DNA of 64,000 bases from a virus (IMGVR_UViG_3300044638_008303:1-64000); one strand, 5' to 3'. Shown: positions 20,103 through 62,951, counted from the stretch's first letter. Notes: a model not told the origin generated them from the letters alone. Program-made: numbers and translations.

Positions 20103-20516
20103 CTAAATTTCTATATCAAATTTTTCTTTTATCCATTCTGGTGATAAATTAATAATTTCATTTTCAAATATTTCAATAATACGAAATCCATTCATTTCTA
20201 ACCATTGATATTTTTGTAAATCTCTTTTAACGCTATTTTTAAATCCAGTTTTAGTTTTATGAAAATGTTTCACAAATTTATCATGTTGAAGACCATGTGT
20301 TTCTACTGCAATTTTTTTTGTAAAATTTATAAGATCACATTTCATTCGAGTCCCAAAAACTGGAAATTCCTCTACTACTACATGGGTATTCCAGCAGTGT
20401 TGAAAGAATTTTTTTACATTAAATTGGACTTTGCTTTTACATGGCTTGTCCCAGTCAATTAAAAAACGATTAATCGTTTTATTGACTTCTTTTCCAAAAA
20501 TATTTTTAAATTTCAT
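20103..20516 (-). CDS. DUF559/Vsr-like endonuclease
   Basis: EFPV...D...IAVETHGLQH...RDLQK..W...NGF. Confidence 0.75.
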   Translation of the reverse strand: MKFKNIFGKEVNKTINRFLIDWDKPCKSKVQFNVKKFFQHCWNTHVVVEEFPVFGTRMKCDLINFTKKIAVETHGLQHDKFVKHFHKTKTGFKNSVKRDLQKYQWLEMNGFRIIEIFENEIINLSPEWIKEKFDIEI

Positions 20517-21546
20517 TCAAATCGTTATGAACCATCTCGTTAACTAAATCTTCAAAAGAATATTTAGGATACCAATTTAATTCAGATTTAGCTTTTTGTG
20601 GATTGCCAAGTAGCAAATCTACTTCAGCTGGCCTATAAAAAATAGGATTAATTTTTACTAAAATTTTATTATTATATATAAATTTTTCATTTATTCCTTC
20701 ACCTTCCCAGTAACCATTAATATTAATTAAATTAAATGCTTTTTCAATAAATTCTTTTACAGTATGTGTTTCTCCAGAAGCTAATAAATATTCTTTTGGA
20801 TCTTTTTGATTAAGCATTATCCAAATACCATAAACAAAATCTTTCGCATGGCTCCAGTCTCTCTTAGCATAAATATTACCCAATTCTAAAGGTTCAAATT
20901 CATATTTATATTCTAAAGCTTTTTTGATATTTGATATTTTTTTTGTAATTTTTCTTGTAACAAATTCTTCGCCACGCCTTGGGCTCTCATGATTATACAA
21001 TAAGCCTTGAATTGCAAAAAGATTATAGCTCTCTCTATATACTTTAACAATATGTCTTGCAGCAGCTTTTGCTGCTCCGTATGGACTTCTTGGTTTTAAT
21101 GGATGAGTTTCATCTTGAGGGCTATAATCAACGTTACCAAGTTCTTCAGAAGAGCCAGCGTTATAAAATCGACAATTTGGAGCATGTTTTCTTATAGCTT
21201 CTAAACATCTAATAACACCGACAGCATCAATATCAAAAGTTTGTTCTGGAATTTGCCAAGAAGCACCAACAAAACTTTGTGCAGCTAAGTTAATAAAATA
21301 ATCTGGTTGTATTTCTCTTACGATATTATCTATTGATTGTGAGTCGGTTAAATCCCCAGTTATTAATTCAAATCTTGGGTTGTTCAATAGGTGTTTGATG
21401 TTATGATAATTATTTGTAGAAGCTCTTCTTATCATTCCAAAGATTTTATAAGTAGTATTTTCTAAAAGAAAATCTGCCATATAACTTCCATCTTGACCAG
21501 TTACTCCAGTAATAATTACTGTTTTTTTAGCATCTTTATTTTCCAT
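20506..21546 (-). CDS. gmd: GDP-mannose 4,6-dehydratase
   Basis: GVTGQDGSY, NLAAQS, SPYGAAK, NHESPRRG, RDW and RPAEVDLL. Confidence 0.95.
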   Translation of the reverse strand: MENKDAKKTVIITGVTGQDGSYMADFLLENTTYKIFGMIRRASTNNYHNIKHLLNNPRFELITGDLTDSQSIDNIVREIQPDYFINLAAQSFVGASWQIPEQTFDIDAVGVIRCLEAIRKHAPNCRFYNAGSSEELGNVDYSPQDETHPLKPRSPYGAAKAAARHIVKVYRESYNLFAIQGLLYNHESPRRGEEFVTRKITKKISNIKKALEYKYEFEPLELGNIYAKRDWSHAKDFVYGIWIMLNQKDPKEYLLASGETHTVKEFIEKAFNLININGYWEGEGINEKFIYNNKILVKINPIFYRPAEVDLLLGNPQKAKSELNWYPKYSFEDLVNEMVHNDLNEI

Positions 21547-21979
21547 ATTTTTTATTTATATATAATAATGGAAAATCTGTGCATATCCCAAAAATATTTT
21601 TAGTTATTTTTTGTTTTTTGGTCAAGACTAAAATTGAATTATTTCTTATTTCTTTATTAGGATACGTCCATATGTAATTTTTAGAAGTTAGTGTAAAATC
21701 ATCATTCTGATGCCAAAAACAATGTATTTTTTTATTTTTTAACATTAAACTTAATGCATCTAAATTTTTAGCATGACACCAAAGTTTATTATTTTGAAGA
21801 AACGATTCTTTTATTGAATAAATTGGTTTATCATGCCCTAAGTACCATTTATTATTCTTAAACCACACATCTATTTCAACATCAAAACCATTATTTAAAG
21901 CAATATTAATTGCGGGTATAGAATTTTCTGTAAAAGGATTTGGCCCATTTAAATTTCCTCTATGCGAAATTATAATCAT
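21536..21979 (-). CDS. PLC-like/glycerophosphodiester phosphodiesterase-fold protein
   Basis: IISHRGN, ENS, DVEIDV, LGHD and GICTD. Confidence 0.75.
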   Translation of the reverse strand: MIIISHRGNLNGPNPFTENSIPAINIALNNGFDVEIDVWFKNNKWYLGHDKPIYSIKESFLQNNKLWCHAKNLDALSLMLKNKKIHCFWHQNDDFTLTSKNYIWTYPNKEIRNNSILVLTKKQKITKNIFGICTDFPLLYINKKYGK

Positions 21980-22584
21980 TATTTTCTTTTAAAAGAAATA
22001 TTAACTTCATTATTATGAATATCATTGCTAGTTATGTTTAAAATTTCAAAATTATTTGATAATAAAAAATCTATGCATTCCTGTTTTGTGTTCTGTTGAT
22101 TATACAAAATATCATTTTCACTTGCAGCTTCTAAAATACCTGCTTCAACAAGTGTTATATATTTACCTAGACCTTTTAAGACATTTAGATCTGAGCCTTG
22201 TGTATCTATGTGAAGATACGTAATATAGGGTATATTATGTTCTTCTATAAAAGAGTCTAATCTTATAACGTCTACTTCTATTTTTTCTGTAACTGTAAAA
22301 TCAGGCCTATTTATCCAACGTGTTTTTGATTTTTCTGAAAAATTTAAAAGAGAACTGCACCCCCAATCGGCGTTTCCCGCAATATTAAAAGTAGCTTTAC
22401 CATTAAAATCTGATACCGCTTTTTTAATTAAAAAATAATTTGTTTTATCAAGAATTTTATTTTCAATGTATTTAATTAAAAATGGGGTTGGTTCAAAAGC
22501 ATAAACAATATTTGAAGGATCATTCGCAAGAAACAAAGAAGATTCCCCATTATTCGCCCCAATGTCAAAATAAATTTTTTTCAT
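21979..22584 (-). CDS. FkbM-family SAM methyltransferase
   Basis: FDIGANNG, AFEP, RLD and HIDTQGSD. Confidence 0.88.
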   Translation of the reverse strand: MKKIYFDIGANNGESSLFLANDPSNIVYAFEPTPFLIKYIENKILDKTNYFLIKKAVSDFNGKATFNIAGNADWGCSSLLNFSEKSKTRWINRPDFTVTEKIEVDVIRLDSFIEEHNIPYITYLHIDTQGSDLNVLKGLGKYITLVEAGILEAASENDILYNQQNTKQECIDFLLSNNFEILNITSNDIHNNEVNISFKRK

Positions 22585-23942
22585 AAAGAATAGTTTTTAG
22601 TGAAATAAGATAAGTCCTCTGGAGTTCCTAATCCCCACATTTTTTTAATATTAAAAGATTTTATTATTTTTTTATCGTTAATTGCTTCATTAAACACTGG
22701 GCAAACATAAAATTCATTATTAACTCTAATGTTTTTTTGAATCATTTGTTCTGCATATTTTACAAAATCAGAACCTTTTTTCCAAAAATAATAGCCAACT
22801 GTTGCTATATTTGATATTGGATTTTTTTCAGCAACCTCTGTAATAATACCATCATTGTTTAATTTAACAAAAGACCACTTAGGATGTGTTGATTCAAATG
22901 TAACGATACCTCCGTCTGCATTGGTTTCTTGCATTTTGTACATAAATTCATTAGAATCCCATTCTGCAAACTGATCTGAATTTGCAAAAAACAATGGGTT
23001 ATCATTATTTATATAAGTTTTAGCTAATAAAGCGGTACATGCCGCCCCTTCTGTTAAATCATTAGTTTCAACTATTTGGCAATTAGGCGTTAATAAATTA
23101 AGTAACGTATCTAAATTATATTTATCACGATGATTTTTTTGAACTACATATATATAATTCGCATCTAGATTAAGATTTTCAATAACTACTTGAATCATTG
23201 GTTTACCGTTTACTTCAATTAATGGTTTCGGAAACGTGTACCCAGCCTGTTCAAATCGACTTCCTGCCCCAGCCATAGGGATAAGAACGTTTAGTTTTTC
23301 ATTTTTCCATTTTGGTATCATATTTATTTGTTTATTTAAGTATTTATAAATATTATTATATGTAACATTTTTTGACGATTCAACTCTCATTATATGAGCT
23401 TTTGATCTATTAGCTGCCAATAGTCCATAAGGAGAGTCTTCAATTATTAAAGTCTCTTCTGGTAAACATTTCATCATTGAAATTGCTTTCCAATACATTT
23501 CAGGATGAGGTTTTGAATTTTCAACATCTTCGTTTGATAATATTAGATCAAAATATTCAATAATTCCAAGTTTACATAATATTACAAAAACTGTTTTACG
23601 TATACTATTACTACAACATGCAATTTTATATCCTTCTTTTAATAAAGATTCTAGACAATTTTGAAGTTGTAAAGAAGGCTTAATATTATTAAGTTTTAAT
23701 AAAGTTATTCGTTGTTTTTCTTTCCAAATTTTTTCATAATTATCGACTGGTAATCCTTTATCTAGAGTAAGCATTTCGAGCTTTTGTTTAGTTTTTAAAC
23801 CATCATATCTATTTAAATGTTCATCCCATTCTATTTTATATTTTGGGCCAAGCGCTTCATTAAGAGCATCAAAATGAATATTTTTCGCTTCAATTAGTAC
23901 TCCATCTAAATCAAAGATTATTAATTTTATAGATTGTTTCAT
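22581..23942 (-). CDS. HAD phosphatase fused to a sugar nucleotidyltransferase
   Basis: N-terminal DLDGVL, KPHP, EDS; C-terminal PMAGAGSRF...PKPL, AEK, EFY and LGTPED. Confidence 0.88.
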   Translation of the reverse strand: MKQSIKLIIFDLDGVLIEAKNIHFDALNEALGPKYKIEWDEHLNRYDGLKTKQKLEMLTLDKGLPVDNYEKIWKEKQRITLLKLNNIKPSLQLQNCLESLLKEGYKIACCSNSIRKTVFVILCKLGIIEYFDLILSNEDVENSKPHPEMYWKAISMMKCLPEETLIIEDSPYGLLAANRSKAHIMRVESSKNVTYNNIYKYLNKQINMIPKWKNEKLNVLIPMAGAGSRFEQAGYTFPKPLIEVNGKPMIQVVIENLNLDANYIYVVQKNHRDKYNLDTLLNLLTPNCQIVETNDLTEGAACTALLAKTYINNDNPLFFANSDQFAEWDSNEFMYKMQETNADGGIVTFESTHPKWSFVKLNNDGIITEVAEKNPISNIATVGYYFWKKGSDFVKYAEQMIQKNIRVNNEFYVCPVFNEAINDKKIIKSFNIKKMWGLGTPEDLSYFTKNYSL

Positions 23943-23966
23943 TATTTTATATTTATTAAAAGTTTT

Positions 23967-24605
23967 TTATAAAAAAGTTCTATTTGGTAATAATTTGTAA
24001 GAAGAACAGTCAAATTCTTCAATCATACAATTATTATATTTAATTAATTTTTCTAAAACTACTTCAGGATTCCAACTATTATCAAATATATTATAAACAG
24101 AATATAAATCTTTCATTTTTATGGAGTTTTTTAAATAATTGAAATTACCAGCTATAAAGTGATCATTTATACCAAATCCCTTGCTAGGATGATATATTTT
24201 AGGAACAAAGCAAATATTTTTAGTAAAATCAAAAATATATTTTGTTTCAAATATTAAGTCTGTTCTACATTTTATAATAAAGTCATAATCATGATTTAAA
24301 TTTTCAATAAAATTATAAATTTTTAAATTATGAAAAAATTGGGAATAATGTCCTATTCGACCATAATTTAAGTTTGAGTTATTTTTTAACTGTTGAGTGT
24401 ATGGAAAATTTATTTGATTTAAATATTCTTCTGTAGGTTCATTATTTTTTATTACAAAATTGAATAAGGTATTGTCAAAAACTTGACTATCCCATGTAGA
24501 AATTAAAAATTCTAAATTATGTTCTGGAAATAATTTATAATAATTGTTTTTTACAATTTCAATGTTGTCTCTAATTTTGCCCCAAAAACAAATTAAACCT
24601 TTCAT
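23967..24605 (-). CDS. Putative glycan-biosynthesis protein (GT-A/WavE-like)
   Basis: ISTW, IIKCRTDL, INDHF and NPE pattern within the sugar island. Confidence 0.5.
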   Translation of the reverse strand: MKGLICFWGKIRDNIEIVKNNYYKLFPEHNLEFLISTWDSQVFDNTLFNFVIKNNEPTEEYLNQINFPYTQQLKNNSNLNYGRIGHYSQFFHNLKIYNFIENLNHDYDFIIKCRTDLIFETKYIFDFTKNICFVPKIYHPSKGFGINDHFIAGNFNYLKNSIKMKDLYSVYNIFDNSWNPEVVLEKLIKYNNCMIEEFDCSSYKLLPNRTFL

Positions 24606-24643
24606 TTTTTAAAAAAAATTGATTTTTGTTATTATTAACTTAT

Positions 24644-25342
24644 TTAGTTCCATATACAAACCCTATTTTTAAATCCATATTCTGTTGTATAATAATCTCT
24701 TTTAAACCCTTCAGACTTTAACCATGGATTTAATGTAGATCCAATATCTAAATAAATATTATTTGAATTAAATTTGAATAATTGATGCGCTAGGATATTT
24801 CCAAACGGACCAGCACAAAATAAAAATAAACTATTTTTTATATTTTCTTTTTGAATTTCTTGTATTAAATTATAATTTTTAATAAAAGCTGTCTCTTCTA
24901 CTGGGTAAAACTTTTCTAATTTAAAAGGTAAATTTTGAATTTGAGAATTTTTATTTGCAATAAGGTAAACCTTATGATTTTGATATTCTGAAATAAAATT
25001 TTCTTTATAAAATTTATAATTAGAATTTACAAATATATTTGCAAAAGTTAAATGCTCATTATCTTGACCACTCATTTCTTTCATGTTAAAATGTTCTTGC
25101 CCCCCACAACATTCGCAACTTATACCAACATAATAATTTAGATCCTTAAATTGAAATGATTCAATCAGCTTTTGTCGATAGAATTCGGTTTCATTATTGT
25201 TTAAATAATTAAATTCTCCATTATTTATATTATAACCATTTATAATTGCCCATTCTCCATCAGCATATTTACTAAAACTAAATGGATGTTTTCTTTGAAG
25301 TTTCTCAAAAATTTTTTTTATTTCTTCATTAAATATTTTCAT
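24644..25342 (-). CDS. DUF1792 / GT-D-fold-like glycosyltransferase
   Basis: SFSKYADGE, LFCAGP and LDIGS parallel the GT-D motifs RFGDGE, LGP and DIGH. Confidence 0.6.
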   Translation of the reverse strand: MKIFNEEIKKIFEKLQRKHPFSFSKYADGEWAIINGYNINNGEFNYLNNNETEFYRQKLIESFQFKDLNYYVGISCECCGGQEHFNMKEMSGQDNEHLTFANIFVNSNYKFYKENFISEYQNHKVYLIANKNSQIQNLPFKLEKFYPVEETAFIKNYNLIQEIQKENIKNSLFLFCAGPFGNILAHQLFKFNSNNIYLDIGSTLNPWLKSEGFKRDYYTTEYGFKNRVCIWN

Positions 25343-26312
25343 TAATTATTTTTATTATTCTATCACTAGAAAATCCATCTCCATATGGGCAGTCTTCATT
25401 AATAATATAATCAATAACTAAATTATCAAAAATATTTTCTAAACTTGACGGAGATAAACACAAATGTAAATGATTTGTATTAATAGCTTCCGGTCTTTCT
25501 GTTGTTTTTCTGCATACAATTACTTTTTTATTAAAAAAAGAACCTTCTTCTTGTAGCCCACCGCTATCAGTAATTACTAATTTACATTCAACTAATAAAT
25601 TTAACAAATCTTTATATTTTAATGGCTCGACAACTTTAACATTTTGTAATAAGTTTTTATGTCGAATTACATTTGGATTAGGATGTATTGGAAGTATAAA
25701 TTCTAAATTTGGATATTTTTTTGCAAGCTTGTCTATTTCTACAAACCATTTTTCCATCAAATGATGATTTTCTCTTCTATGTAGTGTTACTAAAACTTTA
25801 TTGGCATATGTACATTTTTCTTTATATTCTAATAAATTATCTAATATCGTATTTCCTACAACAAAGCATTCTCCATTTGTTTTTTCGTTAGTTAAGTTAT
25901 GTTTAGATAAAGTTGTGGGGCAAAAATTAACATGAGATAATCTTGATATCATTTGTCGATAACCTTCTTCTGGATATGGATGTTCCAAATTATAACTTCT
26001 CAATCCAGCTTCTAGATAATAAATCTTTTTGCATTGATGAAATGCTGCCAAAGCACACCCAAAAGCAGAAGCAGTATCTCCTTGTACTAGTACAGAGTCA
26101 AAATCATCATTGGGAAATTGTAATAAGCAATCAGCAATAATTTGATCTAGTCTAGAATTATTATTATTAATATTAATTTTATAATCTACTTGAATATCTT
26201 TTAATAAATCTATATGCTGCCCAGTAAATAAAAGTTTATAGCTTTTAAGTTTGCTTAGTAAGGGTTTAATTTTAAGCCATTCTGGGCGCGTACCAAAACA
26301 TAATAAAATCAT
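25329..26312 (-). CDS. wecB: UDP-N-acetylglucosamine 2-epimerase (non-hydrolysing)
   Basis: GTRPE, TGQH, QGDT, EAGLRS, HRREN, TDSGGLQEE, ERPE and YGDG. Confidence 0.93.
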   Translation of the reverse strand: MILLCFGTRPEWLKIKPLLSKLKSYKLLFTGQHIDLLKDIQVDYKININNNNSRLDQIIADCLLQFPNDDFDSVLVQGDTASAFGCALAAFHQCKKIYYLEAGLRSYNLEHPYPEEGYRQMISRLSHVNFCPTTLSKHNLTNEKTNGECFVVGNTILDNLLEYKEKCTYANKVLVTLHRRENHHLMEKWFVEIDKLAKKYPNLEFILPIHPNPNVIRHKNLLQNVKVVEPLKYKDLLNLLVECKLVITDSGGLQEEGSFFNKKVIVCRKTTERPEAINTNHLHLCLSPSSLENIFDNLVIDYIINEDCPYGDGFSSDRIIKIINENI

Positions 26313-26313
26313 A

Positions 26314-27045
26314 TTAAATTTGATTTATAACTTTAAAACCTTTGCTTACAATATAATTTAAATAATTATACATTTCTGGAATTGCAAATTTACAAGTTGC
26401 TTCTACACCATCACCATATTCTACTGCTTTTAAGCTTCCCCACATTTCTTTGTCATTTTTTGGATGCGGTGGCACATAAGTTTTTAATCCATAATGTTTT
26501 TGAATAGCATAAGAAAAATGCATATCTTCACCAGCGAAAAAGAATTCTTTTGGTGGCATTTCATACCAATAAGCAGATAACCACTCTTTTTCAAAAAACC
26601 AACAGTGACCCACAATATCTACATGCGCGACTTCTTCATTTGCTGTTTCCCAGCCTATACCATGAGTGTGATGGTAAGAATGTTGATTCTGAAATATAAT
26701 TCCTCGAGTACCTAGTAATCCTCTATGTGTCTGAATTGTATTTAAACAATTTTCTAACCATTTAGATCCTGGAATTGTATCATCATCAAAAATACAAACA
26801 TATTTTGTTTTTGCGTTTAGGGCATATGCAAAACGTGACCATACCCCTAAATTTGTATTACAAACCGCTGTAACGCAATTTTGTTTCACTGAGTCCGGAA
26901 ATTTATCATATGTTTCTGGGTGAAAATTTTGCCATAAAAATATATTTTTGGGCTGAACTGTTTGTTTTTGAATGGAATTAAATTGTTCCTCTAAAGTTGA
27001 GGAACGTCGATAACCATTTAGAATTACTGTAATAGAATCATCCAT
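26314..27045 (-). CDS. GT-A fold glycosyltransferase
   Basis: YVCIFDDD (DxD) and GEDM. Confidence 0.8.
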   Translation of the reverse strand: MDDSITVILNGYRRSSTLEEQFNSIQKQTVQPKNIFLWQNFHPETYDKFPDSVKQNCVTAVCNTNLGVWSRFAYALNAKTKYVCIFDDDTIPGSKWLENCLNTIQTHRGLLGTRGIIFQNQHSYHHTHGIGWETANEEVAHVDIVGHCWFFEKEWLSAYWYEMPPKEFFFAGEDMHFSYAIQKHYGLKTYVPPHPKNDKEMWGSLKAVEYGDGVEATCKFAIPEMYNYLNYIVSKGFKVINQI

Positions 27046-29113: not shown

Positions 29114-29445
29114 AGATTTAGAAATTCTCTTAAGTTCAGAGCTTTAACTAAATCATAACCTTCTTTGTCTTCAAAAGCAATATTATTATTTTCTATTTCA
29201 AACTTTTTTATTTCAGGTAAATTTAAATTAAATTTTTTATATTCTTGATTTAAAAATTTACGCCCATCATCTGATAAAAACCAACACAAGCTATTTAATT
29301 TAAAATTTAATTCTAAACTATTCCAAAATTGTTCATTAGGAAAAATTTTAAATAAACTTTTGACCATTTTCATTTCTCTTGGCCAAATAATATTATTATT
29401 ATCTTTTAATAATTTTTTAATAAAGTCTTTTTTATTTAGACTCAT
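29092..29445 (-). CDS. Hypothetical protein
   Basis: 117 aa ORF in the operon. Confidence 0.7.
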   Translation of the reverse strand: MSLNKKDFIKKLLKDNNNIIWPREMKMVKSLFKIFPNEQFWNSLELNFKLNSLCWFLSDDGRKFLNQEYKKFNLNLPEIKKFEIENNNIAFEDKEGYDLVKALNLREFLNLWQKKTV

Positions 29446-29629: not shown

Positions 29630-29638
29630 AAATATATT

Positions 29639-29644
29639 TTACAC
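29639..29644 (-). promoter_or_regulatory. GTGTAA motif (putative late promoter)
   Basis: 9 nt before ATG 29629. Confidence 0.55.
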
Positions 29645-29658
29645 TTATTTTATAATTT

Positions 29659-54400: not shown

Positions 54401-57132
54401 GAGCTACTCGACGAGCTACTCGACGAGCTACTCGACGAACTAGAAAAAACTCTACACCAATTTGGATCAACAATATTATAAACCTCATCATATACCCATA
54501 ATTTAGTTCCTATCGAAAAACTGTTACATATTCGTGGCGGTTCGCAAGATAACCCTAATCTTATATCTCTAAAATTATTAAAATAATTTACAGAATTAAT
54601 GTAATATGTGCCGTTATAATTATTATTCCCTAAAATTAATATTTGATCACCAACAGAAGATCGGATACTTGGTATAATAGATGGGTTTAAATATAATAAT
54701 CTTACCATTTTCTGCCCAAAATTTTGTGTATTACATATTTGAAATTCTAAACCGTAATTAAAATTATCTCCTGAAAAGATTGGGTTTTGACTATTTATAA
54801 AAGTAATTGAACCGGATTTTTCAACAGAATATTGTTTTTTAGGCCAGTTTGAAAAACATTCCGACCAACAGTTCGTAATACTTGAATTATTAATAAAATA
54901 AAAATCTGGATTATCTATTGTAAAATAAATAATTGTTGGGTCACATGGGTATAATAAATTAGATTCTATACTAATATCGGTAATAGAAGGCACTATACCA
55001 GTGTCAAATATGGTAAATGGTTCTAATGTTGTTAATGTTTCTTCCCAACCCCCGCCATTATAATTGTTAGGAATTGGTTGTAAAATTGGATCTAAACCGC
55101 TTAAAAAGCCACTTTCAAATTCTAATTTTACATTGGGAACATCAAAAAGATGATAAAATTTTCCACTACCAGATGGCGTTTCCCCTAATCTGGAAATTCT
55201 TGTTCTACCGCCGGTTGGATGTCCGTCATATAATTGATAGTTCCCACTTATAAGTTGAAAATAACTATTTTCAAAAAATCTTTCTTCTTCCCCAGAAATT
55301 GGTCGTAATATATATCCAGTATATTGGAAATTATAAGTTGTATCATCTTTAAAACATTGATTAGCAGTAACAAAAGATGGGATTTCATTAATTTCTATAG
55401 TTTCCGGAATTTTAGGATCACAAAAAGTTATATTTAAACCTGTTGAAGCTATACCATCGAAAAAGCCAGTAGAACTATTAAGAACAACTGAACCATCGAC
55501 AGGATTAAATCCTGCCCCATCTTGATTCCAAAATAAAAAAGATTCTCCAGTTATTATTCCAACATAAGGTTTAAAAATAGTCCATTTACCAGGTTCAAAA
55601 TTTAGTAAATAATCTCCGATAAGTTTACCGCTTGTTCTTCCCCCAGTTGCTAAAGCCCCCCCAGTAATTTTAAAAAATCCAGTAACATTCCCCGTAGGAG
55701 AAAGAGGCGGAGATACTAATCTGATAGTTTCATACTCAGATTGGTCAAAAAATAAAAATAATCCGCCAGTATACCGAAAAAATTTTGTTGCAAAACCAGT
55801 TCTTGTAGCAGTTTCATAATCATAGTCAAAAGAATATTGGGAACATATAGAATTACTTAAATTTGAAGAACAGATAGCGTTATAAGCTGATTCACTAATT
55901 GGAGGTGGTACAAAATTACCGCTACTATTAAGATACCAACCTCTTTTAGCATCTGGCACGACACCTGTTACCAAACCAGAATAAAAACCTGTTAACAAAC
56001 CACCTTGAAAATTTATAAACCCACTAAATAAAATATTACCCTTACTACCCCGTGCTGAAATATTTGTTAATGAATATATGTCTCCTATCCCAGAAGCTAA
56101 TTTATCATATTTTTTTTCTATATATTGATCATCTGCAATTCTAAAAAAGCTTGCAATTCCAGAGCCTGTTCCGTATTCATAATAATTTCTTAGCGTATTG
56201 AATCCGCTAACCAACCCCGATACGTTTCCATATAAAAAACCGCTCCCTTCTATAAAACCAGATACAGTTTGGTTTGTTAAAAAAGCAGTTCTTTCTATTG
56301 GTATAAAATAATCCCCAGTAAAACCACTAATATATTTTAACTGAATAGATAATTCAATATCTTTTTCATCGTAAAAAGATAAAATATAATTTACAGTATT
56401 ATTGTTAGCAATATTATCTTGTTCCGGCCCAAAAGAAAGATATTGAATTTGGTCTTCTGGCGTTTCTAATATAAAACCAGAAACAGTAATATCAAAATTT
56501 AAAACTCCTATATTTGTATATAGAGTAATTGGTAAGGAAGAAGTTCCAATTATTAAGCCCGTATTAACTAAATTAAAAGAACCAGAGCTAGAAGGATTAA
56601 TTAAAAAATTATTTGGTAAATTGAGAAAAAAATTATTATCTGATAAAAATCCCGAAAATACATTTATAACACTGGAACCATTATTAAAAATAGTTATTGG
56701 TATGTTGGTATTTTGATAAATATATTCTTTAAAAGTATCTATAAAAAATACGGGTCTTTTCCCATAAATTATAAAATTATTAACATCAATAAAATTAGGA
56801 TTACCACTTAAAATAAAAGAAGATAGACTAAAATCGTTTTTATTTTCAGCTCCATAAAGAAGACTATTATTTTTATATAAGTCAAAATAATTTTGACCTA
56901 TATTACCGGAAAAATTTATATTTTCGTTACCAGCATAATTACCAATAAGATAATTGTTTTTATTATAAATTTTATTATTTTTTAAATTAAAAATATGTAA
57001 AAGCTGGTTTTCTCCAGAAAAATAAAAATTAAAATTTTGATTGCCAGTTACTTCTTGGGGTAGCAAATTTAAATTCCAACTAATTTTATTTTGTGGATAT
57101 ATACTTTTCGAAAATATGCCAGAAATTGTCAT
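51436..57132 (-). CDS. Large tail/virion protein (1898 aa): [S/T]G-rich N-terminus, poly-Ser linker, Asp-box and FG-GAP propellers
   Basis: SHDYGKTW/SNDYGITW repeats and FG.S...IGAP...GAVY repeats. Confidence 0.8.
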   Translation of the reverse strand: MTISGIFSKSIYPQNKISWNLNLLPQEVTGNQNFNFYFSGENQLLHIFNLKNNKIYNKNNYLIGNYAGNENINFSGNIGQNYFDLYKNNSLLYGAENKNDFSLSSFILSGNPNFIDVNNFIIYGKRPVFFIDTFKEYIYQNTNIPITIFNNGSSVINVFSGFLSDNNFFLNLPNNFLINPSSSGSFNLVNTGLIIGTSSLPITLYTNIGVLNFDITVSGFILETPEDQIQYLSFGPEQDNIANNNTVNYILSFYDEKDIELSIQLKYISGFTGDYFIPIERTAFLTNQTVSGFIEGSGFLYGNVSGLVSGFNTLRNYYEYGTGSGIASFFRIADDQYIEKKYDKLASGIGDIYSLTNISARGSKGNILFSGFINFQGGLLTGFYSGLVTGVVPDAKRGWYLNSSGNFVPPPISESAYNAICSSNLSNSICSQYSFDYDYETATRTGFATKFFRYTGGLFLFFDQSEYETIRLVSPPLSPTGNVTGFFKITGGALATGGRTSGKLIGDYLLNFEPGKWTIFKPYVGIITGESFLFWNQDGAGFNPVDGSVVLNSSTGFFDGIASTGLNITFCDPKIPETIEINEIPSFVTANQCFKDDTTYNFQYTGYILRPISGEEERFFENSYFQLISGNYQLYDGHPTGGRTRISRLGETPSGSGKFYHLFDVPNVKLEFESGFLSGLDPILQPIPNNYNGGGWEETLTTLEPFTIFDTGIVPSITDISIESNLLYPCDPTIIYFTIDNPDFYFINNSSITNCWSECFSNWPKKQYSVEKSGSITFINSQNPIFSGDNFNYGLEFQICNTQNFGQKMVRLLYLNPSIIPSIRSSVGDQILILGNNNYNGTYYINSVNYFNNFRDIRLGLSCEPPRICNSFSIGTKLWVYDEVYNIVDPNWCRVFSSSSSSSSSSSSSSSSSSSSSSSSSSSSSSSSSSSIINNLATVYDINSDQCSYSIAGEFSGFQTEDYLYPANRFLNLKDCLNSGKFIPSLPFECTSGEFDPDDDFPFERVVDTTYYYRSNWNKSLNISSGGQYILTVRNGSELLISHDYGKTWFQPDYNYKDIDGTIIHPKMSFPNYIPFTNMKYTAMSSNGQHMAVTGPFGVFFVSNDYGITWARKNLSDVSRWGNFPFNDITFSDKFSYGPVDISDNGRFITTSVSDYFVCTGDLSPNNCINYYGLLFSLTGNICVSSNSGETWRYKGVRGYSPIAESNSWASIKMSRDGQNQIAVCETADTGIGGVLLSARANRRCPPIFVSNNYGVTWSPKYLTNRVGQTAYTFDCGSPCGALVSEQYQPPCPDDNSAAPPDGYTGHGRMWASAAISNDGKTMFAGVLSAGRIWDPTQPGGYANGYSRRPDARKEMGLYVSYNSGKTWNQYSDPFNNFGGNTYYGKLNSFDINLSGPVTDIVLSPPPAPCCIRTLKSIFTGNPGTFQNSVPTFLYPGNHNNRTIDLRLTNEFRNYSKIISSYDNKYSICLIKNGPMIMSSNSGNNFEIVEIPSSFNLHKAITEKKLSLEESSSEQWLSNNSSFLKDGYSIDTSYSVYTDQKVILLGRGDLNTCQLYSRDSRSINYLGLIRSFTGPVLNSEFGYSVATHPTEQIIFIGAPNDSNRGAVYVYENINNNWILKQTLTGSSNSRFGHSIYFGKNNKNDLFVGAPKDSDNSLNQGAVYYYTGNSVSNWGFKQKLSSTVNNGNFGLNLQTNFSGDVLIVGGTGNLNTGCLVYSYNNNNNTWSLKNSLTGSFNSRFGNSISMDENGNVITIGAPYDSTNGLQAGAVSIYTGDKNIGWSFYNKLTGAPNSLFGSKIITYGKNYYDTGPSLRGAINITVSSPGYNQNSGAVWTYRNNIMEPFKWYLYDILLNKYPNSTLGTTIFYPSDYLGFFNNGNIKTRLWIGTSYLNSGFLNFY
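54340..54444 (-). repeat. 12-bp tandem repeat (GAGCTACTCGAC x8 plus a partial copy) encoding about 35 Ser
   Basis: Eight units at 54341-54436, one with a G>A variant, in frame within the 1898-aa gene. Confidence 0.97.
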
Positions 57133-60086
57133 AAAGTTAATACTTTAGTATTACTAGTTCTTTGACTGGTTCTGGTATATAAATCTTTTAATATTTGATA
57201 ATTACCACCCGCGCCAACGCCCCCGCCCATACTAACTGGTTTTATATATTTATCTAGTAAACTAGATAAAGAAGTACCCATTCCGGGCGGTTGAAATAAC
57301 TTATCACTAAATTCATACTGTGTAAAAACGCCATCACTTGAAATAATTAAACTTAAAGAAGATAATCCCTCTTCAACTTTAAAATTTTCAGGAATTAAAC
57401 CCGCAAGTTTAAAACTTATAAATTTTAATGGATCTGAATATGAATAAGATTGCATATTAGCTAAATCTTTTACATAAGCCTCTAATAATGCTTCATTTGG
57501 GATACAACTTCCACCAAATAAATTAAGAAAATTTTCTGCAATATCATTTATGTAATAATCAACGGAATAAACTTTTGTTGGATTTTTTACTGAAACACTA
57601 TTAATTAATTCTATTTTTGGAATAAAAACAGGTATATCATCAGAGCATTTGACAAAAACTCTGTATCCTTTTGTGTAACTACTATTTAAATAACTTGGAT
57701 TAGGGTCGCTAAGATTCGCTTGAGTAGTAAAAGCTTGCGCCATATCTTGGGTTTGTTCACTAAAGGACTGTACTGGGGGAAAAATTTTCATTCCAGGTAC
57801 AGAAATTTCTATACAGGAAGAAGATTGAAGGCCCCATTTACCACGATTTACTAAGATCGTTTTTCCGTCCGCCCCCTGTCTTTCTAAATAATGATTTTCT
57901 GCTATTTCTTGATTAGGATGTTTATCAATTAATTGGGCGCTTAATTTCCAATCTTTTAACTCTTTTACTATAAAAAGTTTTATACTTGTATCGTATTTTG
58001 CTTGAGGATACAAATCGAATAATAAATTCGGCCTGCCATCAACTGTACCAAATTTTTTAAAACATTGATCCCCATGCCAATTGAATAAAGTTTGATACCA
58101 TTTAGTTGCATATTCTAGTTCTGGAAGCCATTTCGTATTGGCTCTTTCCCATAATAAAAAACCTTTAGTTGAATATATCTCAGGTTTTTTTTCTTTTACC
58201 GTTGATTGAAGAGTATTTTTTCTTTCATCTCGTTTGATTTTATTTTCACTAAGCCCTGCTTTAAATTTTGATTTAAGAAATCTTCCTAGTATAGATTGTT
58301 TCGCATGTCCAAAATTAAAAATCTTAATATTATCCATATTTTGACCAATTTTTATAAAATTACCGCTACCATCTTCTGGAGGACCCTCTACATTACATTC
58401 TGATTTAGCGTTACTACTATTGGGAACATTAGTTGAAAATAAACGGTAGAAATGTTTTCCTAAAAAATTAGTAGCTAAATTTTGTTCAGTTTCTATCATT
58501 TGGCTCCAACCATCTTCATTTACTTTCGCAATAAAAAAATAATATTTTGGATCTTCTGGAGTGCCACCGCCAAGCATATAAAATTCTCTTTGTTGTCGTG
58601 TCATCAAAGTATCTCTTATTAAAAAAAACTTATTTTGCTGTTCTCCTATTAGTTTTGGATGAAAAACGTTGTAAACTTCCATATCACCAAAAAATTTTAA
58701 TGTTTTTTTGTCAGCAGGTTCAGTTGCTGGACTCCCATCTTCTTCATAATTATCTGGGGAACTTTCAAAATAAGAATCGGTAATAGTCATATCACTTGAT
58801 GTCGTGGTATTCCCAATAGTTCTAGTATTAGATGCGTTGTTAGAGGAACCTGGTGATTGACTACTTGGTGAAGAAGCGGGTGCTGAAGAACTACTAGATG
58901 GCGCAGAACTAGAAGAAGAATTGGATGAGCTAGAAGACCCTGAAGAACTAGAAGAGCCAGCAGACATTTTATAATTATCGTTTAATACTTTATGATTTAA
59001 AATTCCATAATAAGAAAACCAAAAAAAACTATTTCTTAAATCTACGCTATAATAATTAAGAGTTACGCCTATTTCTTTTGCTACTAAATCACTTTTTATT
59101 ACTGCATTCGGTACGGCTGAATTATTTGATTTTCCATCAAGAGTTGATAATTCTGCAAAACTTAAAGGTTTTAAATTTTGATAGGTATCATTTTCACAAC
59201 TATATGAACGAGGACCCCCAGGTTTGTTAAAAGGACCAATAAAACCTCTACTATAAGTACCTTCTAAAGTTGTTTTATATTTTAAATCAGTAACATTTTT
59301 TATGTTTTTAGCCGTTTCATAAGATATTAATTTTGAATTAGTAATTAAAACTGTTCTATCAATAATTTTTAACTCATTTTTTAGCGCATCGTAATAAAAT
59401 GTTAAGCCAAGGTCATCCATCCAACTATTTAAGACATTTCTTAAATTTCCAACATGTTGAGCTTTGGGAAGATATACTTTAGATGCATCAAAAGTAATTA
59501 TTATTTCTGTAACTTTTGCTTTAATTTGATTAATTAAATTATGAAATGTATAGTAAACAGGGTAGTTTTCCCAGTTAGTAGTTTCCGCATCGCATATTGA
59601 CTTATATTTAGTTGGCGGCATAAATGGACATGGGTCACATGGATCAATCTGAAGTTTTGTTTCTGTATAATCCACAATAGAATCTAAATTTTTGTCACAG
59701 GGATGATACTGTTTACCAACAAGTATAAGATTAGATGGATTAGAGTTAGCGCTCCTTTTTCCATGTATAGTATTTAAGCCAACAAACCATTGATCTAATT
59801 TTATAGATTTATCAACATATTCTAATTTTAATACTTTTTGCTCAGTAGTTGAGTCTAATTCTGTACTTATTAAGTAACCTTTAAATGTAAAGTCTCCAAC
59901 TGTAATCGTTTCTTCTTTTTCTAAATCAGGTTCGGGCGGATTATAAGTTCCAAGTTTATTTGCAATCGTCACACTTAATTTACTTGGACTACTACCACCA
60001 TTAAATTGCCAATTAAAGTCTATAATACCATCATCGCCTTGTAATCCAGGAACTGAAATTTTATCAATTGTAATTTGTTGTGACAT
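57129..60086 (-). CDS. Putative baseplate hub/tail protein (985 aa) with a Ser-rich insert
   Basis: Hub-like beta-rich N-terminus and SAGSSSSSGSSSSSNSSSSSAPSSSSSAP insert. Confidence 0.6.
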   Translation of the reverse strand: MSQQITIDKISVPGLQGDDGIIDFNWQFNGGSSPSKLSVTIANKLGTYNPPEPDLEKEETITVGDFTFKGYLISTELDSTTEQKVLKLEYVDKSIKLDQWFVGLNTIHGKRSANSNPSNLILVGKQYHPCDKNLDSIVDYTETKLQIDPCDPCPFMPPTKYKSICDAETTNWENYPVYYTFHNLINQIKAKVTEIIITFDASKVYLPKAQHVGNLRNVLNSWMDDLGLTFYYDALKNELKIIDRTVLITNSKLISYETAKNIKNVTDLKYKTTLEGTYSRGFIGPFNKPGGPRSYSCENDTYQNLKPLSFAELSTLDGKSNNSAVPNAVIKSDLVAKEIGVTLNYYSVDLRNSFFWFSYYGILNHKVLNDNYKMSAGSSSSSGSSSSSNSSSSSAPSSSSSAPASSPSSQSPGSSNNASNTRTIGNTTTSSDMTITDSYFESSPDNYEEDGSPATEPADKKTLKFFGDMEVYNVFHPKLIGEQQNKFFLIRDTLMTRQQREFYMLGGGTPEDPKYYFFIAKVNEDGWSQMIETEQNLATNFLGKHFYRLFSTNVPNSSNAKSECNVEGPPEDGSGNFIKIGQNMDNIKIFNFGHAKQSILGRFLKSKFKAGLSENKIKRDERKNTLQSTVKEKKPEIYSTKGFLLWERANTKWLPELEYATKWYQTLFNWHGDQCFKKFGTVDGRPNLLFDLYPQAKYDTSIKLFIVKELKDWKLSAQLIDKHPNQEIAENHYLERQGADGKTILVNRGKWGLQSSSCIEISVPGMKIFPPVQSFSEQTQDMAQAFTTQANLSDPNPSYLNSSYTKGYRVFVKCSDDIPVFIPKIELINSVSVKNPTKVYSVDYYINDIAENFLNLFGGSCIPNEALLEAYVKDLANMQSYSYSDPLKFISFKLAGLIPENFKVEEGLSSLSLIISSDGVFTQYEFSDKLFQPPGMGTSLSSLLDKYIKPVSMGGGVGAGGNYQILKDLYTRTSQRTSNTKVLTL

Positions 60087-62951
60087 TTAATTATTATATA
60101 TTATATCTGGTAACTGTTCTAAAAATAGAACCCCAGTTTTTAGATTTAAACTTGATAATTCATTATAATCTTCATTATACGATTGTCTTATACCATTTAC
60201 ATATATTTCCGACAATCTTTCGTAATATTTTTGTGGAGAATAAGAGTAAGGCTTTCCACTTTCTATATATGAATAATCGTAATTTTTAGGAACAAAGCAT
60301 AAATTACCAGTAATTCCCGTATAGAAAGAATAATTATTAAAAGTAATGTTATTTGAAGAATAAACTAACCCCCCAGCGTTAACTGATGAACTTGGAGCGC
60401 CCTGTACAAAAATTGACCCATCATTATTTAAGCTAAGATGTTTTCCATGATATGGAGAAACCTGACCGCTAGGAATTTCTTGATGAAAAGCCCACCCAAT
60501 ATTTAAATTACCTGTAAATATTATAGTACTATCACCTTCATTTTTTGCTGTAGCTATAATTGTTCCATTATTATTAATATCAATACTCGAACCAATTATA
60601 CCAGTAATTACTTGTTTTAATACCCATTCATTATTTAAATCTCCTGTATAAATAGAAATACCAGAAGAACTCCCGAAATTACCGATTACACACACATTAC
60701 CCATGCCATTACATGCGACATCCCATCCAAAGTAAGGAATCTGAGTACTAGGTTTTAATATGTTTTTAATACCCCAACCAACTAAAGAATTTCCAGTATA
60801 TATAATTGCTGACCCCGTAAAATTACTCTGATCATTTGGCGCTCCTACTACTAAAATTGTACCGTCATTATTGGTATCCATAGAGTTACCTATTTGCTTA
60901 CAATTATTAATTGAACTTAACTGTTGTTTGAAATTCCATCCATTATTTATATCACCGGTAAAAATAACTACAGTTCCATTTCGATCATTATTAAAAGGAG
61001 CCCCAACTGCTAAAACTGTACCGTCATTATTAGATGTAGTTGCATAACCAAACCATCCTACAGCATCATAAATAATTTCAATTTCTTCATCCTCAATTAT
61101 TTCAATAGATTCCTCATAAGGTAAATCATTTTTATATTTCCATCCATTATTTGCATCACCAGTATAAATAGAAACCTTATTTATTCCGAAGCTACCTATC
61201 ATCAATAAATTAGCACTACTATTAGTTGCAAGACTATTACCAAAAAATTCATTATTTAGGATACCAGTGATTGTTTGTTTTACATTCCAGCCAAGAATTG
61301 AATTCCCAGTGTATATAGCTACAACTCCTCTAGCAGTATTTTGTAAATAATCGCCCACTATTATTACAGATTCGTCATTATTTATTCTACTACTTCTATA
61401 ACTCCTACTATTAAAAATATTCTGTAACTCATCTCTTAAATCATAATTATTATCAATACTATAATGTATATTTTCAGTTAATTTTTGCCCATTAAAAAAT
61501 ATATTAAAACTACTATTTGATAGCGATGGGATAGAAATAGATGATTCTATATATAGATCTTCATAACATACGGTTTCCCCGGTATTAAAATCAACAAAAA
61601 TAGAGTCTGAAGATGGTTGGCCATATAAATTAAAAGGAACAATTTTTCCGTTTTCTACGCCATAATCATTTTTAACAATTCTTATTAAATCTGGATTGTA
61701 AGAATTACTTAAATCAATAAGTTCTCCAGACGTTTGATATTGCCCATTAATAAATAAAGATTCGTTTTCTATAGTGCGGTTGGGTAAATAGTAACCATAA
61801 TCAAACCTATTTTGAGATAAAAATAAATTTTTATTATTAATTTTACTTATATCTCCAGTAATTAAACCAATTTCTATTAAATCGTCATTTATTTTATCTG
61901 TTGTAAATTTTATATAATCTTTGTTATAATTATTAAATTTATTCAAATTTCTTTTCAAAGAAATCGTTAAAGGTTCATTAAAAAATTGAAAAAATGAACC
62001 GGTAAGAAGAGTAAAGCCATATAACGGTCTTAAACCGTATAATGGGCTATTAGTATATCCAACTGTCTGAAAACCCCAATCATCATATATAACACCTGTT
62101 GCAGTTCTTTGAAAACCTGTAATATATAATCCGCTTCCAGTAATTTCATATCTTCGTCCTGTGATTCCCGTCACAAGACCTGACGCTAAAGCGCCTCCAG
62201 ACGCATAAGTATCATGAATAAAGCCTGTATAAATAAAAGGTAATTCTCGATTAAATAATCCAGAACCCACAATAAAATTATCGATATACCCCAAAAATGG
62301 TTGATTATTATTATATGAATTAATTGACTCAGGGTTATATCCTATATATAAATTTTTTGGATTGTATATAAAGTTTGAATTAATATTAAAATTAGAATTA
62401 ATTACCGAATTTTGAACAAAATTAAAGTAGCCAAAATTTACAGTGTTATTAGAAATATTTAAATATACACTAGATTTATTTGATAAATTAGACTCTTGAA
62501 CAAAAACTCTTGAACCAGATGGTTCAAAATATTCAAAATAAAGATTATTATTAGCCGTAACACCAAATTCAAAACCTTGATTAACATTTATAAAGTAAGT
62601 ACTACCATCTTCATTATATTGTAAAATATTATCTTTTGTAATACTAGATATTAAAGTACTAGATCCAACCCTTATTTTTTCAAAATCTATAATAAAAGTA
62701 GAATCATTATAATTTATAAAATTATTTATACCAGTTATTCTTGCGTAATTACCAGAAAAATATCCACGACCACTTGTTGACCATAATTCATAAGGAAAAG
62801 GAATTATATTTGCAGATAAACGCCCAGAATTAATTCCATTATTTTTTATAGTAGACCCGGTTTCTAAAAAGTTATATCTTAAAACTAATTTAGAATAAAT
62901 ATCTGGACGGGCAAACTGTATAAAATATAGATTATCTTCAATTTTATTCAT
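60087..62951 (-). CDS. Virion protein (954 aa) with a LamG/ConA-like N-terminus and an inserted FG-GAP propeller
   Basis: LYIG...FLGYIDNF; FG...LAVGAP...G.V.IFTG repeats; NG(Q/I) tail-protein repeats. Confidence 0.75.
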   Translation of the reverse strand: MNKIEDNLYFIQFARPDIYSKLVLRYNFLETGSTIKNNGINSGRLSANIIPFPYELWSTSGRGYFSGNYARITGINNFINYNDSTFIIDFEKIRVGSSTLISSITKDNILQYNEDGSTYFINVNQGFEFGVTANNNLYFEYFEPSGSRVFVQESNLSNKSSVYLNISNNTVNFGYFNFVQNSVINSNFNINSNFIYNPKNLYIGYNPESINSYNNNQPFLGYIDNFIVGSGLFNRELPFIYTGFIHDTYASGGALASGLVTGITGRRYEITGSGLYITGFQRTATGVIYDDWGFQTVGYTNSPLYGLRPLYGFTLLTGSFFQFFNEPLTISLKRNLNKFNNYNKDYIKFTTDKINDDLIEIGLITGDISKINNKNLFLSQNRFDYGYYLPNRTIENESLFINGQYQTSGELIDLSNSYNPDLIRIVKNDYGVENGKIVPFNLYGQPSSDSIFVDFNTGETVCYEDLYIESSISIPSLSNSSFNIFFNGQKLTENIHYSIDNNYDLRDELQNIFNSRSYRSSRINNDESVIIVGDYLQNTARGVVAIYTGNSILGWNVKQTITGILNNEFFGNSLATNSSANLLMIGSFGINKVSIYTGDANNGWKYKNDLPYEESIEIIEDEEIEIIYDAVGWFGYATTSNNDGTVLAVGAPFNNDRNGTVVIFTGDINNGWNFKQQLSSINNCKQIGNSMDTNNDGTILVVGAPNDQSNFTGSAIIYTGNSLVGWGIKNILKPSTQIPYFGWDVACNGMGNVCVIGNFGSSSGISIYTGDLNNEWVLKQVITGIIGSSIDINNNGTIIATAKNEGDSTIIFTGNLNIGWAFHQEIPSGQVSPYHGKHLSLNNDGSIFVQGAPSSSVNAGGLVYSSNNITFNNYSFYTGITGNLCFVPKNYDYSYIESGKPYSYSPQKYYERLSEIYVNGIRQSYNEDYNELSSLNLKTGVLFLEQLPDIIYNN

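Follow-up and report, generated by a model that had tools for sequence, protein, structure and literature searches.

A conserved glycosyltransferase core, a swappable sugar-gene cassette and a Ser/Thr-Gly tail-protein signature in a lineage of large aquatic phages

Glycosyltransferase (GT) arsenals are common in large aquatic phages, and what they modify is the question raised by a 64,000-nucleotide stretch of viral DNA, IMGVR_UViG_3300044638_008303:1-64000 (hereafter the window, meaning the whole stretch analysed). Between positions 20103 and 62951 it carries GTs and sugar-donor genes together with a module of candidate tail proteins, and an earlier note on this DNA had proposed that the phage uses the former to O-glycosylate Ser and Thr residues of the latter. 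Here we describe the identities of these genes, the GT-D fold of one enzyme, the division of the system into a conserved core and a hypervariable cassette, and the statistics and conservation of a [S/T]-G dipeptide ([ST]G) in three distal tail proteins. We tentatively favour the reading that the phage glycosylates its own distal tail proteins, a reading drawn from sequence. The lineage gives a tractable test of GT target because it combines a small conserved GT core, a cleanly bounded and swappable cassette and a statistically strong acceptor-candidate motif in three protein families. Our comparisons cover 20 contigs of IMG/VR (L-numbered loci) and, for tail and GT genes, the genomes G001, G002, G005, G007 and G012; counts of gene presence are limited to relatives whose fetched DNA covers the locus.

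A Ser/Thr-Gly signature in three families of distal tail proteins

The open reading frames (ORFs) from 62951 down to 39541 lie where distal tail, baseplate and fibre genes are canonically found, because in G001 a 1960-amino-acid (aa) ORF two genes upstream of the orthologue of 62954-63991 is the tape measure (phrog_4211, E 1.7e-52). Their place downstream of the tape measure, together with fold, suggests that they are structural; a PHROG scan of these ORFs returned no family matches, and Pfam gave repeat families only. The module comprises:

60087-62951, minus strand: s954, a 954-aa distal tail protein with a lectin-like jelly-roll and long beta-hairpins (aa 1-520), then FG-GAP-like repeats
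57129-60086, minus strand: 985-aa hub-like protein whose two conserved domains flank a Ser-rich linker (aa 376-460); [ST]G depleted
51436-57132, minus strand: 1898-aa distal tail protein with an [ST]G-rich N-terminal part (aa 1-700), a linker of 35 Ser (S35), and BNR and FG-GAP propeller modules
45779-51394, minus strand: 1871-aa protein with DUF5122 and BNR beta-propeller repeats (PF17164, E 5e-44); no [ST]G enrichment
41257-45681, minus strand: 1474-aa distal tail protein, [ST]G-rich; orthologues 29-50% identical
40547-41245, minus strand: 232-aa protein of the tail module; its Pro/Ser linker contains S5 and S7, and its orthologues (34-39% identical) have no poly-Ser
39541-40527, minus strand: 328-aa protein at the tail-module end with S5 at its C terminus, [ST]G depleted; orthologues 28-29% identical, without poly-Ser

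The earlier note had described three of these proteins as saturated with [S/T]-G, and comparison with shuffled sequences bears this out. The dipeptide occurs 64 times against 23.8 expected in 41257-45681 (z 9.5, 2.7x), 70 times against 32.9 in 51436-57132 (z 7.7) and 35 times against 14.2 in s954 (z 6.4, 2.5x). Across the three proteins it is over-represented 2.1-2.7x, compared with 0.7-1.1x for G[ST], its reverse, and no codon family of Ser, Thr or Gly goes unused. Because the reverse dipeptide is unenriched and the codons are mixed, the signal acts at the level of the peptide and is not a DNA word. Other proteins of the module are depleted, namely the hub-like protein (2 observed, 11.1 expected, 0.18x) and 45779-51394 (13 observed, 20.8 expected). 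Within the enriched proteins the motif is strongest (3-4x) in the conserved N-terminal or core parts, reaching 3.3-3.9x at aa 281-800 and 931-1474 of 41257-45681 and 3.2-3.9x at aa 1-700 of 51436-57132, and it falls to 1.5-1.65x in the swappable BNR and FG-GAP propeller modules.

The signature extends across the lineage. Over the orthologues from G001, G002, G005 and G007, together with the s954-like ORFs of G012, enrichment is 1.4-3.95x, with at least 2.0x in clear orthologues and 3.2-3.7x in those of 41257-45681; these proteins are only 26-50% identical to their counterparts in the window. The hub-like protein and the tape measure show no enrichment. Between orthologues of ~30% identity, about half of the [ST]G sites are shared in position, versus 25-35% of other Ser and Thr residues, a difference that the aligner may favour; for 41257-45681 the shared fraction is 54-57%. 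An exhaustive profile search with aa 1-520 of s954 yielded 72 cluster representatives, every one of them enriched (72/72; 1.7-4.2x, median 3.0x; reverse dipeptide 0.95x). In an alignment of 40 sequences we counted 22 motif columns that are ~80% Ser or Thr, a preference for hydroxyl residues, with the two interchanging in 11 of the 22, and the usual other residues there are Ile, Tyr, Asn and Gly. A pattern search of IMG/VR for relatives of 60087-62951 found none, and searches with the distant family members P0160, P0182 and P0137 added one further record, from the same lineage.

The AlphaFold 2 (AF2) model of the s954 N-domain (predicted local distance difference test (pLDDT) score 80.7) resembles lectin-like jelly-roll domains in Foldseek. 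For aa 20-250 the best fold matches are the carbohydrate-binding domains of clostridial neurotoxins (TM-score ~0.3, 9-15% identity), a resemblance of fold only that would be compatible with a glycan-binding receptor domain. Motifs mapped by hand onto the jelly-roll model fall at strand-to-loop junctions.

The three motif-rich families show no mutual homology by BLAST or by profile-profile comparison (probability ~1%), and the long-fibre proteins of T4 are not enriched (1.0-1.3x). The [ST]G signature is real and lineage-wide, and is not a generic trait of fibres. As judged from sequence, its properties would fit an exposed, hydroxyl-dependent site and a strand-capping structural motif equally well.

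A conserved glycosyltransferase core beside the tail module

Five genes form a tier that is retained throughout the lineage:

20506-21546, minus strand: Gmd, GDP-mannose 4,6-dehydratase, a lineage core gene (PF16363, E 1.6e-116, 389.8 bits over the full length)
32621-33712, minus strand: GT4b, a core glycosyltransferase (phrog_2170, E 4e-14)
35619-37535, plus strand: GT4c, a core glycosyltransferase with DUF4214 and a C-terminal segment like the GT9 N-domain (phrog_2170, E 3e-9; PF13946, E 4e-6)
37537-38742, plus strand: GT9 C-domain (aa ~30-190) followed by ~210 aa without assigned function (PF01075, 33.4 bits, over the gathering score; C-terminal matches to heptosyltransferases I, II and III)
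38782-39540, plus strand: u252, a conserved 252-aa phage protein and the last gene of the GT4c-GT9 operon

Gmd scores 388.9 bits against TIGR01472, just below the equivalog cut-off of 415, and retains the intact SDR motifs GVTGQDG (GxxGxxG) and YGAAK (Y156xxxK160). It is found in 20/20 relatives, mostly between the orthologues of u141 and u117. In the window it has been relocated to the far end of the cassette, compared with a place upstream of RecA in most relatives. The usual Gmd site corresponds here to a 214-nucleotide (nt) gap on the minus strand (29446-29659), between ORFs 29092-29445 and 29659-30084. This gap holds a small Cys-rich ORF that starts at ~29623, 9 nt past a GTGTAA box, and the box may be a leftover Gmd promoter.

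GT4b is 63-82% identical in 17/17 relatives and GT4c 67-86% identical in 16/16; u252 is 68-89% identical. Among the relatives compared, we found none without the core GTs where the fetched DNA covers them. The deeper relative G012 (L039 = CAZDRR010000001.1, 41914-58597; G012:C1, 139 kb), with ribonucleotide reductase (RNR) 65%, RecA 44% and DnaB 32% identical, still keeps Gmd, GT4b (41%), a three-gene GT2-WecB-GT-D module and the GT4c-GT9-u252 operon (u252 43%). The operon converges on the end of the tail module both in the window and in G012, that is, down to 44% RecA identity. Sequence searches of the Protein Data Bank with GT4b, GT4c and GT9 gave nothing informative.

The GT9 enzyme departs from the classic layout of two Rossmann domains in one GT-B polypeptide, its C-domain and putative N-domain lying in different ORFs. 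Residues 541-585 of GT4c match the heptosyltransferase N terminus weakly (E 0.009), and the last 120 aa of GT4c are its best-conserved part in G012 (50% identical). The split is no sequencing frameshift, because the two-ORF arrangement is conserved: GT9 has an ORF to itself in G012 as well as in G001 and G002, where the gap is 1 nt, and in G005, where it is 25 nt.

A hypervariable cassette between two fixed boundaries

The remaining sugar genes lie between two genes that stay in place:

28019-29113, minus strand: RecA/UvsX-like recombinase, fixed cassette boundary (PF00154, E 4e-11; 75-98% identical in 20 relatives)
27054-28019, minus strand: GT4a, GT4-like and borderline (PF00534, 26.1 bits versus a cut-off of 26.4; NF038229, E 5e-6)
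26314-27045, minus strand: GT2 with a GT-A fold (PF00535, 30.9 bits, over the gathering score)
25329-26312, minus strand: WecB, non-hydrolysing UDP-GlcNAc 2-epimerase (PF02350, E 1e-66; TIGR00236, 229 bits, cut-off 210)
24644-25342, minus strand: GT-D (DUF1792-type) glycosyltransferase (fold match and DXE motif)
23967-24605, minus strand: 212-aa ORF with no Pfam match and no glycosyltransferase signal
22581-23942, minus strand: fusion of a HAD (beta-phosphoglucomutase-like) domain and a sugar-1-phosphate nucleotidyltransferase (PF13419, E 3e-30; PF00483, E 9e-13; TIGR02009/TIGR01990)
21979-22584, minus strand: FkbM-family methyltransferase (PF05050, E 3e-21; TIGR01444)
21536-21979, minus strand: 147-aa ORF matching a family without assigned function (phrog_34507, E 5e-25); shared with only 4 relatives
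20103-20516, minus strand: conserved 137-aa ORF, the fixed boundary on the DnaB side (weak DUF559 match, PF04480, E 0.002, below the cut-off)

Nucleotide similarity to the relatives breaks at ~20520 and resumes at ~28017-28038, and in most relatives all genes from the RecA stop codon to ORF 20103-20516 are replaced. That ORF is 64-94% identical in 17/20 relatives; in the unmatched L005, L006 and L008 the fetched DNA ends inside the cassette. Its weak DUF559 match is of the Vsr-like endonuclease type, at the edge of a cassette that swaps. Across relatives the cassette measures from 3.9 kb to more than 10 kb and holds 5-13 genes on a single strand, fully coding. Clustering of the 184 cassette and glycosyltransferase proteins gives 83 families, and among 79 family representatives the commonest Pfam assignments are FkbM (8), Gmd/epimerase-type SDR (6), GT2 (5), GT1/4 (4) and class I methyltransferase (4). 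Other cassette families of the relatives include GT9, GT6, WecB, DegT aminotransferase, C-methyltransferase, RmlC and hexapeptide acyltransferase. None of the 184 proteins has a polytopic membrane topology, and the enzyme set is predicted to be entirely soluble.

Only L001, L012 and L014 have the cassette of the window in common with it, and GT-D occurs in 3/20 close relatives. Compared with L012, the cassette is 92% identical in nucleotides and the flank from RecA to GT4c 77-80%, a difference that indicates recent cassette exchange. This one cassette, 92% identical in nucleotides, thus accompanies tail proteins of only 33-50% identity.

From the enzymes listed in the earlier note, Gmd, FkbM, the HAD-nucleotidyltransferase, WecB and six GTs are supported, the GTs being GT2, three GT4-like enzymes (GT4a borderline), the split GT9 and GT-D. 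A seventh, 'WavE-like' GT was not found; ORFs 23967-24605 and u252 (38782-39540) show no glycosyltransferase signal, and u252 has no Pfam match either. The note had further envisaged a methylated deoxy/amino-sugar glycan. Enzymes for GDP-6-deoxyhexose- and ManNAc-type donors and for methylation are indeed present; a single defined glycan is not supported, because the cassette with FkbM, the HAD-nucleotidyltransferase, GT-D, WecB, GT2 and GT4a is swapped wholesale in most relatives.

The Atlas structure neighbours of 23967-24605 include clusters with Sulfotransfer_2 (39% of members, TM-score 0.76), and phage clusters with Sulfotransfer_2 or PRK domains resemble its Atlas model (TM-score 0.72-0.79). 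As a lead only, the protein may be a sugar sulfotransferase or kinase.

The GT-D enzyme and the poly-Ser tracts

The assignment of 24644-25342 to DUF1792/GT-D, made in the earlier note, was checked with a structural model and Foldseek and holds. The ORF scores 21.5 bits against Pfam PF08759, under the gathering cut-off of 27, and is also below the NCBIfam cut-off. Many of its 867 homologues have PF08759, and many of those at 57-77% identity have it precomputed. The AF2 model is confident (pLDDT 92.8, predicted TM-score 0.91), and its top three Foldseek matches are the DUF1792 structures 4PHR, 4PFX and 5V4A (E 4e-8 to 9e-6, probability 1.00, TM-score 0.51-0.60), at a sequence identity of merely 15-17%. 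D28-G29-E30, which we take to be the catalytic DXE of 4PHR, is invariant across 39 homologues. The model thus firmly supports a true GT-D fold enzyme with a DXE motif. The GT-D enzymes with known structures modify the O-linked glycans that serine-rich adhesins bear.

GT2, WecB and GT-D also adjoin one another in three contigs from metagenome-assembled genomes (MAGs), at 46-61% identity. The module spans 24644-27045 in the window, 7257-9675 in L038 and 6225-8708 in L040, and it is also found on a Falkowbacteria MAG contig (432 kb) and a SAR202 MAG contig. Some GT-D homologues sit on contigs of ~380 kb.

The earlier note had located poly-Ser tracts in four proteins of the module, and they are where it placed them. 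The longest in the window is:

54340-54444, minus strand: S35 tract, aa 897-931 of 51436-57132, encoded by a 12-nt tandem repeat (TCGTCGAGTAGC, ~8 copies)

The hub-like protein has four S5 runs at aa 378-401. In G002 an S111 tract arises from a 15-nt tandem repeat (L034 1616-4912, that is G002:C1:81616-84912, and neighbours); tracts of 111, 34, 26, 21, 14 and 13 residues occur there in four tail-module proteins. The tracts sit where conservation stops or breaks. Relatives match 51436-57132 only from aa 1 to ~800, and the tract lies beyond; they align with the hub-like protein at aa 23-380 and 459-937, excluding the linker between its two domains.

The note had also proposed a test for co-variation of GT content with these tracts and had cast them as acceptors. 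Poly-Ser occurs in the window, G002 and G007 and is lacking in G001, G005 and G012, with no association with GT-D over the six genomes:

Window: GT-D yes, poly-Ser yes
G007: GT-D yes, poly-Ser yes
G012: GT-D yes, poly-Ser no
G002: GT-D no, poly-Ser yes
G001: GT-D no, poly-Ser no
G005: GT-D no, poly-Ser no

This mismatch in presence and absence leads us to reject poly-Ser as an acceptor of GT-D of the serine-rich-repeat (SRR) type. Nor do the tracts behave as conserved acceptors, being minisatellite linkers that are huge in G002, which has no GT-D. We read them instead as flexible linkers that can expand and that join modules, glycosylated or not.

Such findings bear on the view that no linked system exists: the sugar genes would serve another target (a glycoconjugate, soluble or secreted, or a different protein of phage or host), the poly-Ser tracts would be slippage linkers, the [ST]G motif a quirk of fold, and their co-occurrence a coincidence. 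The tandem-repeat origin and poor conservation of poly-Ser agree with it, as do the independent recombination of cassette and tail proteins and the presence in the core operon of partners without known function, DUF4214 and u252. It leaves unaccounted for that core GTs and [ST]G are both kept lineage-wide, to 44% RecA identity, and that the motif appears in three families without detectable homology and not in T4 fibres. We consider this view unlikely.

Candidate acceptors of the glycan

Under the reading that we favour, the lineage would possess a two-tier, fully soluble glycosylation system. The conserved tier (Gmd, GT4b and the operon of GT4c-DUF4214-GT9 N-half, GT9 C-half and u252) would supply a GDP-6-deoxyhexose donor and start or build a core glycan, which the second tier, the 5-13-gene cassette, would elaborate. 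In this phage the cassette would add ManNAc-type sugars through WecB with GT2 and GT-D, the HAD-nucleotidyltransferase would provide a further nucleotide sugar and FkbM would add O-methyl groups. The glycan would be attached to hydroxyl side chains where [ST]G marks the passage from strand to turn in distal tail proteins of the phage itself, and attachment would take place in the cytoplasm, either ahead of assembly or in its course. We infer the acceptor, the order of the steps, the glycan composition and any role as shield or adhesin. A narrower version, in which a short strand-capping [S/T]-G sequon is glycosylated by the core and the outer glycan is varied by cassette swapping, making this a virion 'serotype' locus, is in our estimate on the unlikely side.

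Two features lead us to favour a virion acceptor: the deep conservation of GT4c-GT9-u252 beside the tail module, and the lineage-wide retention of core GTs together with the [ST]G motif. A third is the pairing of one cassette with very different tail proteins, which would be odd if the cassette matched a host-strain glycan.

Several points weigh against a virion acceptor. The assignment is drawn from genes and motif, and the role of [ST]G could be structural only, as a strand cap in beta structure of the fibre type; the replacements at motif columns, mostly Ile, Tyr, Val and Leu, fit strand positions. GT9 enzymes classically target the lipopolysaccharide (LPS) core. The GT operon and the tail genes are on opposite strands, and their adjacency may mark only a module border. 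The motif is missing from the hub and from the 45779-51394 protein, poly-Ser and GT-D show no co-variation over the six genomes, and the reading calls for a pressure that diversifies a virion glycan in water. Similar soluble GT arsenals in pelagimyophages and cyanomyophages are usually taken to modify the host O-chain (PMC7029224).

Remodelling of the host envelope would follow that precedent. The soluble phage GTs would act on lipid-linked or LPS-core intermediates of the host and rely on host priming, flipping and ligation; the altered surface would, for example, block superinfection or stop progeny from re-adsorbing to debris, the cassette would vary with host-strain glycans, and [ST]G would be an unrelated structural motif. 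The gene content is that of O-antigen and capsule loci (Gmd, WecB, RmlC, DegT, GT2, GT4, GT9, methyl- and acetyltransferases), the heptosyltransferases of LPS belong to GT9, and a cassette between conserved genes recalls bacterial O-antigen loci; host surface change is also the published reading of GT-rich hypervariable regions in pelagimyophages and cyanophages (PMC7029224).

The complete genomes speak partly to this. Models for the Bac_transf priming transferase (PF02397) and the Wzx flippase (PF01943) matched in 0/4 complete relatives, WecA-type, Wzy and ABC proteins not having been searched by model, and the cassettes likewise lack a priming transferase, a flippase and any polytopic membrane protein. 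A tyrosine integrase was found in 0/4 complete relatives, so classical lysogenic seroconversion is inapplicable. A ThyA-family hydroxymethylase (PF00303) was found in 0/3 complete relatives, where control genomes gave matches and other routes to a modifiable base were not searched. These absences weaken lysogenic seroconversion and DNA glycosylation and leave room for hijacking of host lipid-linked intermediates. Envelope remodelling does not explain the lineage-wide [ST]G signature, and one cassette beside very different receptor-binding tail proteins is unexpected if both follow the host strain. We regard it as possible though doubtful.

DNA hypermodification is very improbable. It would have the GTs place variable glycans on modified bases against restriction, with the cassette in an arms race with modification-dependent nucleases. 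We know of no 6-deoxyhexose, ManNAc or O-methylation chemistry on DNA. The sugar genes do lie amid genes for replication and nucleotide metabolism (dNMP kinase, dCMP deaminase, ThyX, RNR, RecA, DnaB). Of these, ThyX and dCMP deaminase indicate ordinary dTMP synthesis, and the hydroxymethylase missing from the three complete relatives is the one that would act on dCMP or dUMP. Diverse virus-encoded DNA glycosylation has been reported (Pyle et al. 2024, as cited in PMC12619734).

Comparison with known glycosylation systems

Mycobacteriophages reportedly use one or two GTs, whose targets are Ser/Thr-rich tails at the C termini of capsid and tail-tube subunits. The present phage has at least six GTs, with donor-synthesis genes and a hypervariable cassette, and the candidate sites are dispersed [ST]G dipeptides in distal tail proteins, the capsid and tube genes lying outside the window. 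The proposal common to both is that phage-encoded soluble GTs modify Ser and Thr of the phage's own structural proteins in the cytoplasm, virion O-glycosylation in mycobacteriophages being described by Freeman et al. 2023, as cited in PMC12619734 and PMC11256854. Should the tail proteins prove to be the acceptor, virion glycosylation would be known beyond mycobacteriophages, in environmental phages too, and would add a second, glycan-based layer of tail-surface diversity.

Pelagimyophages and cyanomyophages have hypervariable host-recognition clusters with LPS-type genes (PMC7029224; S-SCSM2R in PMC12801897), and P-SSM2 is cited as a further case in PMC10611076. Like the present lineage, they are large aquatic virulent phages with many GTs, Gmd and epimerase-type genes in or near hypervariable regions by the tail fibres. 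Unlike these T4-like phages, the lineage has a DnaE-type polymerase and a sharply bounded cassette, between RecA and a fixed ORF, apart from a conserved GT core. We found no report of an [ST]G signature for pelagimyophages or cyanomyophages in the literature searched. GT-rich hypervariable regions near tail fibres are thus already known in T4-like aquatic phages (PMC7029224); new are the [ST]G signature and, in a DnaE-phage lineage not described before, the bounded cassette versus conserved core. With the host envelope as acceptor, the lineage would be a clear case of a virulent phage with strain-matched surface-remodelling genes, and either outcome would aid the annotation of thousands of metagenomic phage glycosyltransferases.

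The SRR adhesin system (GtfA/B, dGT1; 4PHR, 4PFX, 5V4A) O-glycosylates Ser and Thr of a surface fibre protein stepwise in the cytoplasm, and the enzyme described here shares its GT-D fold and DXE motif. It differs in its 15-17% identity and its place in a variable cassette found in 3/20 close relatives. Neither the GtfA/B pair nor the accessory Sec system is present, and the poly-Ser tracts are homopolymer linkers with no SRR repeats and no co-variation with GT-D.

Three further systems offer analogies. Chloroviruses and mimiviruses encode Gmd, GTs and sugar methyltransferases with which, needing no host pathway, they equip virion proteins with glycans of methylated deoxy-sugars; they are giant viruses of eukaryotes, their glycans are joined to the capsid protein by N-linked or atypical bonds, and the likeness is at the level of generic enzyme families. 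The flagellin glycosylation islands of Campylobacter, Pseudomonas and Aeromonas combine polymorphic sugar genes with soluble transferases that modify exposed filament Ser and Thr in the cytoplasm without a strict sequon. That likeness is an analogy only, as Maf/Fgt-type transferases and the pathways for pseudaminic and legionaminic acid were not identified here. The autotransporter heptosyltransferases TibC and Aah (GT9-like) O-glycosylate Ser in the repetitive beta-structure of a surface protein; unlike theirs, the GT9 of the window occupies two ORFs, and its similarity to models of LPS heptosyltransferases is weak.

The phage lineage and other features of the window

The window (G+C ~30%) encodes a phage set for replication and nucleotide metabolism: a DnaE-type polymerase (11763-14297), separate PHP and exonuclease ORFs, DnaB and primase, along with dCMP deaminase, dNMP kinase, ThyX, the RecA-like recombinase, a class II RNR and a sigma factor. 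Very large minus-strand ORFs follow these genes. The RecA-like protein is encoded at 75-98% identity on the 20 IMG/VR contigs, and 4 of these, 140-178 kb long and bearing direct terminal repeats, are complete genomes. The nearest cultured phage is not close (DnaE at most 28% identical), and the lineage is one of large aquatic virulent phages of ~140-180 kb with DnaE-type replication, previously undescribed. The contig of G012 was deposited within a Candidatus Saccharibacteria MAG and is a phage genome with tape measure and tail genes, which indicates either mis-binning or a hint of the host.

GTGTAA, at 2662, 3772, 6032, 10151, 29639, 45712 and 51415, stands 9-31 nt upstream of seven start codons. 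The genes behind these boxes include a subtilase (3786-4694), two tail genes and the small ORF ahead of the RecA-cassette run. Examined as a sign of joint expression of GT and tail genes, the hexamer was absent upstream of the GT4c operon; overall it is not over-represented (23 observed, 28.7 expected).

The replicative polymerase appears to be split into three adjoining ORFs, namely PHP (14916-15686), an RNase T-like exonuclease (14294-14926) and the DnaE core (11763-14297).

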